52,408 nucleotides of DNA from Thelocarpon superellum. Lineage: Eukaryota. A program made the position numbers and the translations under genes. The notes under the pieces were generated by a model. The model was not told the origin of the DNA. It did not search any database and saw only the letters and a program-made list of their open reading frames with translations. Where the stretch lies: the NCBI GenBank assembly GCA_026025795.1, contig JAPEUG010000083.1, positions 1 to 52,408 of the forward strand. Reading direction: 5' to 3'. Of this stretch, positions 18,091 to 23,883 are shown one piece after another; within the stretch, counting starts at the first letter, position 1; every line of letters begins with the position of its first letter.

Positions 18091-21000
18091 TCAAGAGATT
18101 CGCATCGTGAGGCCAGGCGCACGAGGATCATACTTTTCCGTCGATTCCACATTCCACATGCCCAAACTCGCCCCCATGCCCACCTTCTTCGAGCTTCGTT
18201 TCTTCCCGTCCTTCTCCTGGGCCTTGAGCATCGACTTGCTCGTCATTGCCAGCGAGGTGACTAGATCCTGCAGCCGGCCCGATCGGATGAAGCATGGCAG
18301 GAGATCCGATCCCTCGGCCGCCACCAGGGCGGACAGCTCCATGCTCCGCAGCAGAAGATCCCGCTTGAAGGAATTCCCGGCGTACTGAAGCACGCTGTTG
18401 TACGCCAGGATCACATTCGGTAGATAGGCGTTTCGCAGCTTGACAAACTCCGCGTCATCGTCTGTGACACACGGTCAGTCATCTCCGCACCCCCGGTAGA
18501 ATCATCCACATACGTCCTCGAAGTCCCACCAGCCAACCCTCGAGCAATGGCTGCACCGCCGAGATCACGTCGTCTGTCGCCTTGATCACATCCCCTCTCA
18601 CCTTCTTGGCCTTGGAGGAGTCGGTGTTGCTACACACGAAAGGTCAGCAGCCAATCAAGGAACGGAAACATCACACGTACGACGCGACCCGGTCAATCGT
18701 CGACTTCCACGCCTCCAATGCCACCAGCGCAATCGCGAGCTGTTCCAGCTGAATGAATGTCTTGGCTTGCGTGGCAAGCACTTCGGCCGTCAGGCGACGA
18801 TGCTCGGCCCCAGCCTTTCGTCGCGCCCGCTCATCAGCCTGTTGTCGGTGACGGGTCGCTCGCGTCGTTCGTGGTGTGTCCGGCACCGCCGGTTGCTCGT
18901 CTTCTTCCTCGGGCATGTGGACGTTGACGTCGACCGCCGTGCCCAAGATCGCCCCAGACTTGGCCAACGAGATCTGCGAGCTGGGCATCCGTGCCAGCAC
19001 GTCTCGTGCCGCGCTGAGATGGCCCAGCCCGAAGAAGCGTCGGTAGAGCAGGGCGCCCACCTCGAATGTGAGATTCCAGCATCCATCCACGAGCAGAAAC
19101 CACTCAAAGCTCCGGATCAGCATGCGGTCCTCCGGGCTGATCTCGTCGCCCATGAAGCCGCTCTTGATCTGGTGCGCCGGATGGGACGCGAGCGCCGAGT
19201 CGTCCAAGATGGCGTTGACCACGCTCGGCTCCTTTTCCGGCTCATGCACGCCGTCCGAGCCCAGGTCAAGCAGGAGCAGTCGCAGCTGCATGTCGACGAC
19301 CTTGGGCACGTTGATTCCCAGCCCGTACATCAACGCGATCAGCTCTCGCTGGGTCGACGAGGCCGTTTCGTCCAGCAACACCCGGCTCAGCGTCATCCAC
19401 TGTCGTTCGGGCGAGAGCCGTGCGGCATACACCGGGATCATCAGTAGCTTCCCGGCCAAGCGTAAGAAGTCTATGTAGGCCACGATGATGTTCTCGGCCG
19501 CAATCTCGCGATTGCCCGACCCGACGTCGAGGCCCAGATCTTGGAAGAGCAGGAGCATGTGCGCGAGCACACGAAGCCCGTCAAAGTGGTCCGGCTCGAT
19601 GTACGCTGCCGCGGGAGGCGCCTCGTCCATGGCGGGGATGATCTTGGAGTAGTCGTCCCGATTGGCGACCTGGGCGAGGAAGAGTCCCTGGTGGTAGATG
19701 AAGTCGCGAAAGTTCTTGCCGACTAGCACACCCTGCAACATCGTCAAGGGCTGCGTGGCGTCGTCCTTGGTCACTTTGTGCACCTTCAGGTGCTCGACTA
19801 CGCGTCGGCCCGCCGTGTCCGGCTCGCCGTGGTAGAAGACGGAGTCGAAGACGCCAAATTGCTGGGTCAGGGCGGGCGGACACCGGTCGGGAAATTTCCG
19901 GCGCAGGTACACGTCAAATTGGCCGAGGAGGAGGGAGTTGTAATGGGCGAAGATGAAGTCGTCCCAGCTGCGGCACACCTTATGTACGCTGGCGAGGTCG
20001 CCACTCAGGACCCCGTACACGGCGCGCTCGTAGTCATCGATGCCCCCATTCTGGGAGAGGGCAGCGCACATGCGTCGCCACAGCGCACGCGAGGTACTGC
20101 CGTTCGGGATGGACGAGGCCCGACGGTGGCTGAAGCTGGTGGGAATCATGCCACGCATGCTGGCCCCTCGCCACCCTTCCACTCGATCCTGACACCACTC
20201 GCGAATCTCGGACCAGTCCCTCCCGCGCCGTAGCATCTCCCAGCACGCCAGCCAGATGGCGCGCTCAAAGTATTCGTCTGCCTTCTCCAGCACGTGCGAC
20301 TGCCGCGTCACAGCGTCGGGATCGAGCTGGGTCACCAGGCTCTCGGTCCGGTCGGCGTTCATCAGGCTGGCCGCGATCCCGGGCGAGTCCGGGTCCAATG
20401 GCTGGGGCCAGGAGCGCAGCCGTTTCTGCGCCTTGATGGCTTCTCGTGTGTATAGCCAGCCATGCGCCCACAATCCCCGCCCTCGATCGGCGCCGCCCTC
20501 GAGCTGTTCGACCAGCAAGTCAATGTCCTTGCCCGATCGCTCAGCGTTGTCCTTGACCCAGGTGAGGACGACCTGGCGCTCCCGTGCCGTGTCATCCTCG
20601 ACCAGGAAGTGCTCCCACACCTCTTGCTCGGAGGAAAAGCGGTGGATCTCCCCGAGCTCGGCCAGACGGGCCTGCTTCTCCGTGGCCGGGTCCAGGGACG
20701 GCGGCGGGTACTGAATGTCGAGCATCCCATGGAGCAGATCCCAGGTCTGCTCCTCTCGCTCCCAGTGCTGCAGGTCTTCCACAGTGGTCTCCGTCGGGTA
20801 GGTGGCGAGTTCCAGCGACGATTCTGCCTCATCCTCGCTCTCGGGCTCGGAGACGTCCTCGGTCGGGTCGCGCGACGTGGGCCCTTTGATGTCTTTGACC
20901 CGCTGATGCCAGCCTCGGTGCACCTGTTTCTGGCGCTTGGGCGCATGACGACTCCCCAGGCGCTCGACGGCCTCGCGGGCGATGTGACGATACTCGTTGA

Positions 21001-21613
21001 TGAGATCGAAGGTGGCGCGGTGTCGTGGTGCGGAGCCGGAGGGGTATTTTCGCGGATTGAGCCGGTCCAGCTGCTCGGCAAACTTCTCGACCTCTCGGCC
21101 GACGCGGTCGGCGGCAACCTTGAGAGGGAAAAAGGCCTCTTCGTAATGCTCGGGTTGGAGGAGAGCGCTTGGCGGAAGGAGGTTGAAAGCTGCGAGAGGT
21201 CAGCCAGTCGTCGAGTGGCATTGGACCTTCTCGACCCGGTCCTTTCCGTGGTCTCACCTTGCTCATTCTCGTCATCCAGGTCTTCTCCGTCGACGTACAT
21301 CATGTCATCAGCTGATGCGTCGTCGGACTCTTCGGAAGATCCTTCAGGCTAGGGTCGAGGGGTGTCAGCGTCACGCGTGCTAGATCGCTCTCGGGGTTGC
21401 CTGGCCGGCGTACCCTTTCATATTGCCACGATCTATCACGTCCATTCTAGTGAACACCTTCAGTCAGTGCTGAACACGCATGGACGAGGAGATGGGCGGA
21501 CGCGGCGGAATGAAGAGGACCATGCGGAATACAGGTGGTGAACGTACCGGACGTGCCACCTTCTCCAAGGGCTCCACCGCTTGGTGGGCGGCTTTTCGCG
21601 TGACAGGTGCCAT
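18091..21613 (-). CDS. NUP84: Nucleoporin Nup84/Nup107
   Basis: MAPVTRK.. small 5' exons, PLKVAADRVGREVEKFAEQLD, WEREEQTWDLL, GWLYTREAIK, LVTQLDPDAVTRQ, YERAVYGVLSGDL; several GT-AG introns at both ends. Confidence 0.93.
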
Positions 21614-21939
21614 AGCCCTTGGCTGTCTGGCGCCGCGTTGGCGAATAGGCGTGAGGAGGGTCAGGCCATGGACGGGGAAACAGCATCAACAAAGAGGATG
21701 ATCGGCGTGCTGCATTGTCGCCGGCAACTTTCTTGGCCAGGAACAGCGGGAGTACTACCAGCAACCAACACGCCGGAAGTTCCCGCACCGTCCACCACCA
21801 CGCGTGTCCAGCACACAGTCACTAGCCACTTTCGCGCTACGGCCACGACGCAACCCCCATAGGGCCGTTGGATGCGAGTGCGGGTGCGAGTACTTAAGCG
21901 GCCGAGGTGCCGGCAAACTTCTTGCTCTTCTCCAACAAT

Positions 21940-22104
21940 GACAATAGGCAATCATTAGAGTCTCGGGTCAGAACATTCGTTCCATGGCTGGCCAAATCCC
22001 TTGAGGGTTTCTCAGCGTGCTCACGGTCGCCTAAGAGTCACTCGGCACCTCCTGATCGATTTACCTGATCTCTTTGGAGGCGTGAAGGTCAAGCAGAAAC
22101 AGTT
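21940..22104 (+). ncRNA. snR11: Candidate H/ACA box snoRNA, snR11-like (guide for the LSU rRNA uridine equivalent to yeast Psi2416)
   Basis: Lower stem TAGGCAATC(21945-53)/GGTCGCCTA(22025-33); pocket arms TAGAGTC(21956-62) and GCTCA(22019-23) complementary to LSU rRNA UGAGC-U-U-GACUCUA; AGA hinge 15 nt after the pocket top; second hairpin CACCTCC/GGAGGCGTG; ACA at 22099-22101 (alternative 22111-22113); ends approximate. Confidence 0.7.
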
Positions 22105-22262
22105 GGTGGTACATGATGTTGATGATGTGACGTTGATGATGCTGTTGATGATGTTGATGAGGATGGTGGTGGCGGATGGTGGAAATGGGCTTAGTGTCTC
22201 CTCCGTTTCTCCTACATTCTTTACGCCAACTCCGAGACGAGAGTCTTATGTACAGGCTTCTC

Positions 22263-22784
22263 TCACTTTCCGCGAGCGGTCTCGATCGATTTCGGCGTCG
22301 TGGGATTCCATGTCTTCGCTTCTTGCGCTCGTTGCTTCATCTTCAGCCTGAGGAGATGGGCCTTTGGACAGCTGACGGTGGCGGCCTCGTCGCCCTGCCG
22401 ATGATAGAACACGTTACAGCATTCGTACAGTGCATCAACCTGCCCTCTGCATTTTTCTTCGTTGAAGTTATTCTTTGCTAGACAGTCTGCGACGGTTAGT
22501 CACCGGACACGCGCACCTGGATGGGGAGCGGTCGCGGAGTGGGCCGGAGAACTCTGGACGGGTAGCGGGGCTCACCTTGGATGGCGCACTACCCGTAGAC
22601 CTCATCGTTATCGTTAGTTTCCCTTGCACGGTACGACAAGAACAAATCCGGGATGCACCCGGACGGACGCTCGACATACCGCTCGTGGATGGCACGGTGG
22701 GTCCGTGACAAGGTCCTTTTCAAGTACCTGGATACATTAGAGGCTGGTAGGGTCTGCGTGGGATCTCGTTGGTCAGCCTACCAT
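22263..22784 (-). CDS. CMC4: Mitochondrial Cx9C-motif protein Cmc4 (MTCP1/p8 family)
   Basis: Exons 22782-22784 (ATG), 22680-22727, 22576-22588, 22263-22486 give MVLEKDLVTDPPCHPRACAIQDCLAKNNFNEEKCRGQVDALYECCNVFY...SCPKAHLLRLKMKQR; all introns GT-AG. Confidence 0.9.
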
Positions 22785-23527
22785 GTTTGAGGGTGGCTGC
22801 TGGTATGAGCCAGCTCAATCATGTACGTCTATGTGACCTGCCGGGGCCCTCCTGGACAGCATCTCGATAATGAAGGCGGCCCTGGCTGTAGCTGACCTCT
22901 ATCTTACGTAATATTGCCGAATGACGACGTTCATGCCAACCCCGCTAGTCGGTGTTAGGCCTTAAAAGCGCGCGGCTTCCACAAAGGCGTTACTGGTGAA
23001 TCGTTGAAGCGCCTGCGGCTGCTATCTGCATCCCGGTGGCGTGTGAGATCCCCAGTACCTCTCTCTGTTGGCGGCGCGACGTTTGTTTTCTCCACCTGCC
23101 CACTGCCTCCTGTCCCCCGCATCCACAGTCCAGCGTCCACTGCCCACCGCTCCCGGACAGTCCCATAGATCCACTTTCCGCTTGGTCCTCGCTTCCCTTG
23201 CCTTCTTCACTGGCACGTCGGACCGTTTGCCTGACCCAGCCGGGTGACAGCACCGCCAGATCCCGCGATCGCCGATTCTTTTGCTGGTGCCCAGCTCACG
23301 AACGTCCGCCTCTCGCCTCGGTCGACGTGGATAGAGCCAGCAGACGGACCTCATCCTCACCTTCACTCACCCGCGCGCCCACGATCCACGATCCACGATC
23401 CCCCACCTTACACTGTTCAGCATACCACCGTCGCGCCGCGAGCCCTCTCATCTCTCATCTCTCATCTCTCATTTAAGCCTCTTCTCTCCGCCACCCACTC
23501 GCAGTCTCATCTTCGCGCGTCAGCATC

Positions 23528-23883
23528 ATGTCGGGATCAGACCAGGGATCGCCTCCGGCGAGCAAGCCCGAGGAGCACGCGGTGCCCGAGCACCTCAACA
23601 TCAAAGTGACGGATAATAACAACGAGGTCTTCTTCAAGATCAAGCGCACCACCGCCCTCAAGAAGTTGATGGATGCCTTTTGCGAACGTCAGGGCAAAGC
23701 CCCCAGCACCGTGCGGTTTCTGTTTGACGGCAGTCGAGTGCGGCCGGAGGACAGTCCGGATAGTGTAGGTGGACTTCAAAGATATACCTGCCCGGATAGT
23801 CTCCTGACTTGTGTTGCTCCTCACAGCTCGAGATGGCAGATGGCGACACGCTAGAGGTTCACCAGGAACAGATTGGCGGATAG
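23528..23883 (+). CDS. SMT3: SUMO (small ubiquitin-like modifier)
   Basis: EHLNIKVTDNNNEVFFKIKRTTALKKLMDAFCERQGK..VRFLFDG..PDS|LEMADGDTLEVHQEQIGG*; intron 23765-23826. Confidence 0.97.

Follow-up and report, generated by a model that had tools for sequence, protein, structure and literature searches.

A predicted box H/ACA snoRNA of the Nc ACA11/snR11 type lies convergent with CMC4 in Thelocarpon superellum

Between the genes for NUP84 and CMC4, contig JAPEUG010000083.1 of the Thelocarpon superellum assembly GCA_026025795.1 carries a short element on the + strand. An initial annotation, made from the sequence alone, read this element as the orthologue of the yeast H/ACA guide RNA snR11. The locus raises three questions: whether the element is a guide RNA, which uridine it would serve, and whether it is related by descent to snR11. 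The contig was analysed over positions 1 to 52,408, and this whole stretch of 52,408 nucleotides is referred to here as the window. The assembly comprises 19 Mb in 797 contigs, and the DNA of the window is fungal in type, with spliceosomal introns and matches to NUP84, CMC4 and SUMO. The anatomy, conservation, covariation, rRNA complementarity and synteny of the element, all of which were observed directly, indicate that it is almost certainly a box H/ACA snoRNA of ~182 nt, independently transcribed from the + strand, that guides the pseudouridine at the yeast 2416 position through its first hairpin. It is an ordinary guide-RNA gene, that is, a new locus of a kind already known. The predicted RNA and its parts are as follows.

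21935-22116, + strand: predicted box H/ACA snoRNA of the Nc ACA11/snR11 type, with predicted ends
21918-21933, + strand: tract rich in pyrimidines, directly before the predicted transcription start
21936-21942, + strand: 5' leader, CAAUGUC in the family and CAAUGAC in the window; candidate for accessory pairing with LSU rRNA just 3' of the pocket duplex
21945-21953, + strand: hairpin 1 lower stem, 5' strand
21954-21962, + strand: 5' guide arm
21963-22018, + strand: hairpin 1 upper part, a 2-bp stem followed by a junction with two sub-hairpins
21966-21973/21986-21993 and 21994-21999/22005-22010, + strand: the two sub-hairpins of hairpin 1
22019-22023, + strand: 3' guide arm
22025-22033, + strand: hairpin 1 lower stem, 3' strand
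22034-22039, + strand: box H variant AGAGUC
22046-22108, + strand: hairpin 2
22111-22113, + strand: box ACA

The guide arms were found where the initial annotation had placed them, with TAGAGTC at 21956-21962 and GCTCA at 22019-22023. Below them, 21945-21953 pairs with 22025-22033 in eight of nine positions, the ninth being an A.C mismatch, and the hinge AGAGTC starts at 22034, so that its first A lies 15 nt from the top of the pocket at 22019; both features agree with the earlier description. A search with the two-arm pattern gave one occurrence in the window and none in 100 shuffles, a count that shows rarity only, since the pattern was derived from the site itself. The second hairpin that had been proposed is likewise present, but the ACA implied by an end at 22104 is not the terminal one. 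In the family alignment that triplet (22099-22101) sits within hairpin 2 and was rejected as the terminal box. The box at 22111-22113 aligns with the terminal ACA of the family, hairpin 2 closes directly before it, and it lies 77 nt from box H (family range 69-85 for ACA-type boxes). The extent first given, 21940-22104, was accordingly abandoned, because its start cuts the conserved leader (21936-21942) and its end implies the internal ACA. The RNA is now drawn from about 21935 to 22116, its 5' end being set by the start of the Nc ACA11 cDNA and its 3' end by the rule of ACA+3. The snoRNA is present in one copy in the genome.

Folded as a single sequence, the window RNA is no more stable than its shuffles (z of -0.13 for hairpin 1 and +0.84 for hairpin 2), and the structure therefore rests on covariation in homologues. 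Homologues were sought with a two-part pattern of ~20 bases taken from the guide arms, which matched 92 stretches in metagenome contigs and two in 596 billion bases of prokaryote genomes; because these 20 bases are the search pattern, the invariance of the arms among the loci is by construction. Eight chance-like matches (six metagenome, two prokaryote), five truncated or aberrant ones and 46 that were more than 90% alike were dropped, leaving 35 for alignment. From these 35 sequences, with the window left out, a model (R1) was built. R1 gave a single match in the window, at 21933-22123 with 111 bits, of which the bases of the arm pattern could account for up to ~40. It also matched 86 of the 92 metagenome stretches and neither of the two prokaryote controls; the 86 include the 35 training rows and their close relatives, which are bound to match. 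The eight model-negative loci hold the same arm bases yet do not score with R1.

Covariation was examined in the 36 sequences, i.e. the 35 homologues and the window, over 23 named pairs in four helices. In total 89.2% of the cells were paired and 17 of the 23 pairs showed two-sided change, compared to 80.2% and 11.5 pairs in shuffles, with 0-2 of 500 shuffles reaching values as high. Slid controls were paired in 25-42% of cells, a comparison that favours the lower stem and the helices of hairpin 2, which were named by the author from the alignment. The lower stem of hairpin 1 (helix 1) was 87% paired with two-sided change in four of seven pairs, helix 3 in the upper part of hairpin 1 was 93% paired with such change in seven of eight, and helix 4 in hairpin 2 was 83% paired with such change in all six. 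RNAalifold, run on a MAFFT alignment, recovered the upper helices of hairpin 1 only, and neither the lower stem nor hairpin 2. Of the 35 homologues, 34 have a hairpin measuring 55 nt or more that closes no more than 3 nt from an ANA box, which is ACA in 29 of these. The pyrimidine-rich tract at 21918-21933 is also seen in the 36-sequence profile and may be a promoter element. In hairpin 1, towards the loop of its first sub-hairpin at 21983-21985 (alignment columns 75-78), an invariant C and U three bases apart were observed in 36/36 sequences, outside the search pattern; they possibly make a tertiary contact.

Box H, which has a constant position and was not part of the search pattern, provides a further conserved feature, as A1 and A3 are kept in all 36 sequences. 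Position 6 is A in 18 sequences, G in 17 and C in the window alone, so that, as the initial annotation had pointed out, the hinge departs from strict ANANNA, which has A at this position. In fungi, A1 and A3 of box H are reported to be conserved and position 6 to be variable (Canzler 2018, PMC5824354), and position 6 was therefore not treated as defining. The structure of hairpin 2 is kept while the arms of its pocket vary freely among the 36 sequences. The RNA was thus read as a single guide, and hairpin 2, to judge from the alignment, is probably non-guiding.

Which uridine would the first hairpin serve? A search of the T. superellum assembly found no LSU rRNA, and the pairing was therefore checked on the rRNA of other eukaryotes. 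The 16-mer quoted in the initial annotation occurs at seven loci in contigs of a viral collection. Three of them (L001, L002 and L004) are eukaryotic LSU rRNA fragments, situated at contig ends, in which the 16-mer falls at about positions 2416-2431 of the LSU_rRNA_eukarya model; the other four look like chance matches. On L001, L002 and L004 the two arms form 9+5 pairs around an unpaired UU at the position of yeast Psi2416, as the initial annotation had proposed. The 5' arm contributes nine pairs, one of them G.U, downstream of the target dinucleotide, also on segments of N. crassa 26S rRNA, and the 3' arm contributes five upstream of the target U. The rule for H/ACA pockets calls for at least 8 pairs, with the target U and one further base unpaired, 14-16 nt from the box (PMC2780460, PMC6800473). 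Judged on the LSU rRNA of other eukaryotes, the window pocket agrees with this rule, with 9+5 pairs, UU unpaired and a distance of 15 nt.

The register is fixed by neighbouring modifications. In yeast 25S rRNA, Psi2416 is assigned to snR11, Um2417 to snR66 and Um2421 to snR78 (PMC8307265, PMC5699541). The target motif has U at +0, +1 and +5, matching Psi2416, Um2417 and Um2421, and since Um2417 and Um2421 set the register, the LSU site predicted for the RNA corresponds to yeast 2416. The N. crassa 26S 12-mers printed for Um2379 and Um2383 (PMC2780460, supplement 4) carry the same target sequence as the motif. By the numbering of these neighbouring methyls, the N. crassa target would be 26S U2378. 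Elsewhere in the T. superellum assembly, on the minus strand of contig C30 (L106:1499-1512), 14 bases agree with the guide region of N. crassa CD5, an snR78-like RNA for the methyl five bases past the snR11-type target (PMC2780460). This match gave no hit in Rfam, and the 11-base pattern used to search for it was no rarer than its control; judging by the shared bases, it is perhaps the snR78 of T. superellum.

Taken together, these data suggest the following mode of action. The snoRNA would be expressed on its own from a + strand gene of ~182 nt. Its hairpin 1 would clamp the LSU pre-rRNA on either side of the UU dinucleotide by 9+5 pairs, 15 nt above box H, and would give the pseudouridine synthase of the H/ACA particle access to the first U (yeast 25S U2416). 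The second hairpin would serve as a structural hairpin without a conserved guide. From the family we infer that the RNA is expressed in T. superellum with about these ends, is assembled with Cbf5, Nop10, Nhp2 and Gar1 and directs the modification.

The surroundings of the snoRNA in the window are made up of three protein-coding genes.

18671-21190, - strand: NUP84 (Pfam PF04121, E 1e-139), divergent upstream neighbour, with a provisional 5' end
22263-22784, - strand: CMC4, exons 22784-22782, 22727-22680, 22588-22576 and 22486-22263; stop 149 nt from box ACA
23528-23770, + strand: first coding stretch of a SUMO-like gene (Pfam PF11976), beyond CMC4

CMC4 was identified by its last exon (Pfam PF08991, E 5e-21) and has four coding exons with GT..AG introns. 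Being on the minus strand, it converges on the + strand RNA. Its first coding exon (22782-22784) is the start codon alone and an internal exon (22576-22588) measures 13 nt, and both are easily missed by gene callers. A TGATGT-like simple repeat (22113-22175), which starts directly at box ACA, occupies much of the sequence between that box and the CMC4 stop.

The homologous loci, which had been picked by the RNA motif alone, were then searched for the neighbours found in the window. Of the 86 loci, 78 have CMC4 downstream in opposite orientation, as do 67 of the 69 with at least 700 nt of flank and all 35 non-redundant loci. Where 1500 nt or more are available, 47 of 51 loci have NUP84 as the divergent gene upstream, and SUMO lies beyond CMC4 in all 49 with at least 2700 nt. 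None of the eight model-negative loci carries CMC4, NUP84 or SUMO. In the two exceptions for CMC4, L027 and L032, ~1 kb of downstream sequence is free of CMC4 and resemblance to the family breaks off within the RNA; these are probably chimeric contigs, and L027 runs on into inverted NUP84 sequence. The loci are diverse, as NUP84 identities were 29-51% in 48 of them. The block of four genes, NUP84(-), snoRNA(+), CMC4(-) and SUMO(+), which spans 18671-23770 in the window, is kept across diverse fungal contigs (L008-L087). In L014, L026, L065, L070 and L075 the distance between the snoRNA and CMC4 is ~1 kb greater than in the other loci. The divergent pairs snoRNA/NUP84 and CMC4/SUMO may share promoters. 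Between the CMC4 stop and box ACA the median distance in the 35 loci is 91 nt, with a minimum of 24 nt and no more than 100 nt in 20 of them.

The same arrangement is found in yeast. In S. cerevisiae, SNR11 is followed by CMC4 on the opposite strand (PMC4378619), as the initial annotation had stated. The snoRNA-CMC4 arrangement, found in 67 of 69 loci with sufficient flank, is thus common to yeast and to loci of the window type, as had been claimed, the term Pezizomycotina being applied to the latter from their closeness to Neurospora. In rrp6 mutants, read-through goes with a fall in CMC4 expression by more than half (PMC4378619). It is plausible that overlapping 3' ends keep the snoRNA and CMC4 together. 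We found no description of cross-species snR11-CMC4 synteny in the literature searched, a collection that lacks most subscription papers and the Canzler supplements.

What, then, is the relation of this RNA to snR11? The initial annotation had put forward the Rfam snR11 and fungal H/ACA models as a check. No relevant match was obtained for the window or the site, either at the gathering threshold or at E up to 10, with RF01260 included. The window did not reach the RF01260 threshold of 42 bits, and a search of the whole genome with this model gave no match among the 24 scored of 213 candidates. The window RNA is consequently not filed under the Rfam snR11 model. The claim of orthology is supported by the shared target and the shared neighbour but not by a covariance-model match, and with the Rfam result negative, descent from yeast snR11 rests on that target, that neighbour and the statement by Canzler that the orphan Nc_HACA_11 matches snR11 at the sequence level (Canzler 2018, PMC5824354), rather than on sequence compared here. 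The yeast RNA resembles that of the window in its target position and in having CMC4 downstream on the opposite strand, and differs in that its RF01260 model has 260 positions and does not detect the window.

A closer relative is known from Neurospora. Nc ACA11 (EU780990) is an intergenic RNA of 176 nt that was identified by cDNA cloning and northern blot and listed as an orphan (Liu et al. 2009, PMC2780460). Compared by eye, it is identical to the window over blocks of 13 nt at the 5' arm and 9 nt at the 3' arm. It also has the leader, a two-branched hairpin 1, box H in the same position and a terminal stem followed by ACA, and it is intergenic and similar in length (176 nt vs ~182). In contrast, its box H ends in A where that of the window ends in C, one leader base differs and hairpin 2 has diverged. 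The window RNA is most likely homologous to Nc ACA11 and corresponds to snR11 of yeast. Since Nc ACA11 was cloned and has been matched to snR11 in the literature, a filamentous-fungus counterpart of snR11 is not new; it is already in print, its Neurospora homologue having been cloned in 2009. The available text of a paper reporting four new fungal H/ACA RNAs, with three assigned targets that all lie elsewhere, makes no mention of snR11 or CMC4 (PMC8216456), and a T. rubrum paper (PMC3890542) makes no mention of this RNA.

The failure of the Rfam model to recognise the window RNA, together with its length of ~180 nt against the 260 positions of the yeast model, would also be expected if a separate guide, not descended from snR11, had converged on the same uridine, the RNA and its target being otherwise as described. 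We consider this unlikely, as Nc_HACA_11 is reported to match snR11 at the sequence level (Canzler 2018, PMC5824354) and as yeast and the window-type loci have the same convergent neighbour, CMC4, which convergence of guides does not explain. Less likely still is that T. superellum carries a decaying or non-functional copy. Two changes in the window are unique among the 36 sequences, the C at box H position 6 and the A at the sixth position of the leader, and at 19 Mb the genome is small. Against decay, both arms are intact, the stems hold compensatory pairs, ACA is in place, the copy is the sole one, and box H position 6 is reported to vary in fungi (PMC5824354). That the element is a structure of the CMC4 3' UTR, which may overlap it given the median of 91 nt to the CMC4 stop in 35 loci, or a DNA element, is barely credible, since it is the + strand on which box H, box ACA, the pairs that include G.U and the complement to rRNA are all read, and since cloning in Neurospora yielded the homologue as a discrete RNA of 176 nt from the same strand (PMC2780460), which already largely refutes this reading.

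For the snoRNA of the Nc ACA11/snR11 type, the leader raises a further question. At least six of its seven positions match in 34 of the 36 sequences, compared to 8 of 200 control segments. Three positions are identical in 36/36 and two in 35/36; the leader is preceded by a pyrimidine tract and followed by a linker of 1-9 nt to the lower stem. The window is alone among the 36 in having A at the sixth position. As the leader opens the Neurospora cDNA, it is part of the RNA there. Three other roles were considered for it. A general 5' signal of H/ACA RNAs was rejected, as only one of 20 printed N. crassa H/ACA RNAs, inspected by eye, starts in this way. The start codon of a micro-ORF was rejected because linkers of 1-9 nt keep no frame. 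As for pairing inside the snoRNA, a full 7-bp partner was present in only 3 of the 36 sequences.

A partner for the leader is found in the rRNA. In the Rfam LSU consensus, two bases separate the pocket duplex from a downstream 7-mer that pairs with the leader of the family in seven of seven positions, with one G.U. The LSU fragment L004 pairs in the same way, whereas complementarity in the other two fragments is 6/7 and 5/7, and the window's own leader variant pairs 6/7 with L004. A second, similar 7-mer lies in the LSU near model position 2601-2607. The continuation of fungal LSU rRNA past the pocket duplex is, we presume, a perfect complement of the leader. Both spacer bases and the G that opens the pairing are also present in the printed N. 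crassa 26S segment. Such pairing would keep a helix of domain V open while Psi2416, Um2417 and Um2421 are installed.

Box C/D RNAs are known to form extra base pairs beside a modified site (van Nues et al. 2011, PMC3116282; PMC8522698). The leader is similar in being a conserved snoRNA stretch outside the guide and complementary to rRNA beside the modified site. Unlike the C/D pairings, which were tested, the candidate here would be formed by a 5' leader preceding an H/ACA lower stem. A limited literature search met no case of accessory pairing by an H/ACA RNA, the passages available from PMC8522698 and PMC3116282 concerning C/D RNAs. We propose tentatively a joint reading, to which we give slightly less than an even chance, in which the leader is an accessory guide, so that the RNA holds ~21 bases of pre-rRNA, and in which the snoRNA-CMC4 pair predates the split between budding yeasts and filamentous ascomycetes and is held together by overlapping 3' ends.

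The practical gain from this locus is in annotation, namely 86 loci, a working model and corrected ends for a guide that Rfam misses in filamentous fungi. The deep snoRNA-CMC4 microsynteny provides a link between yeast snR11 and Nc ACA11 that is independent of sequence. If the leader pairs as proposed, it would provide an H/ACA equivalent to the additional base-pairing described in box C/D RNAs. In either case it offers a cheap and specific test of H/ACA accessory pairing at a site where three modifications crowd within six bases.
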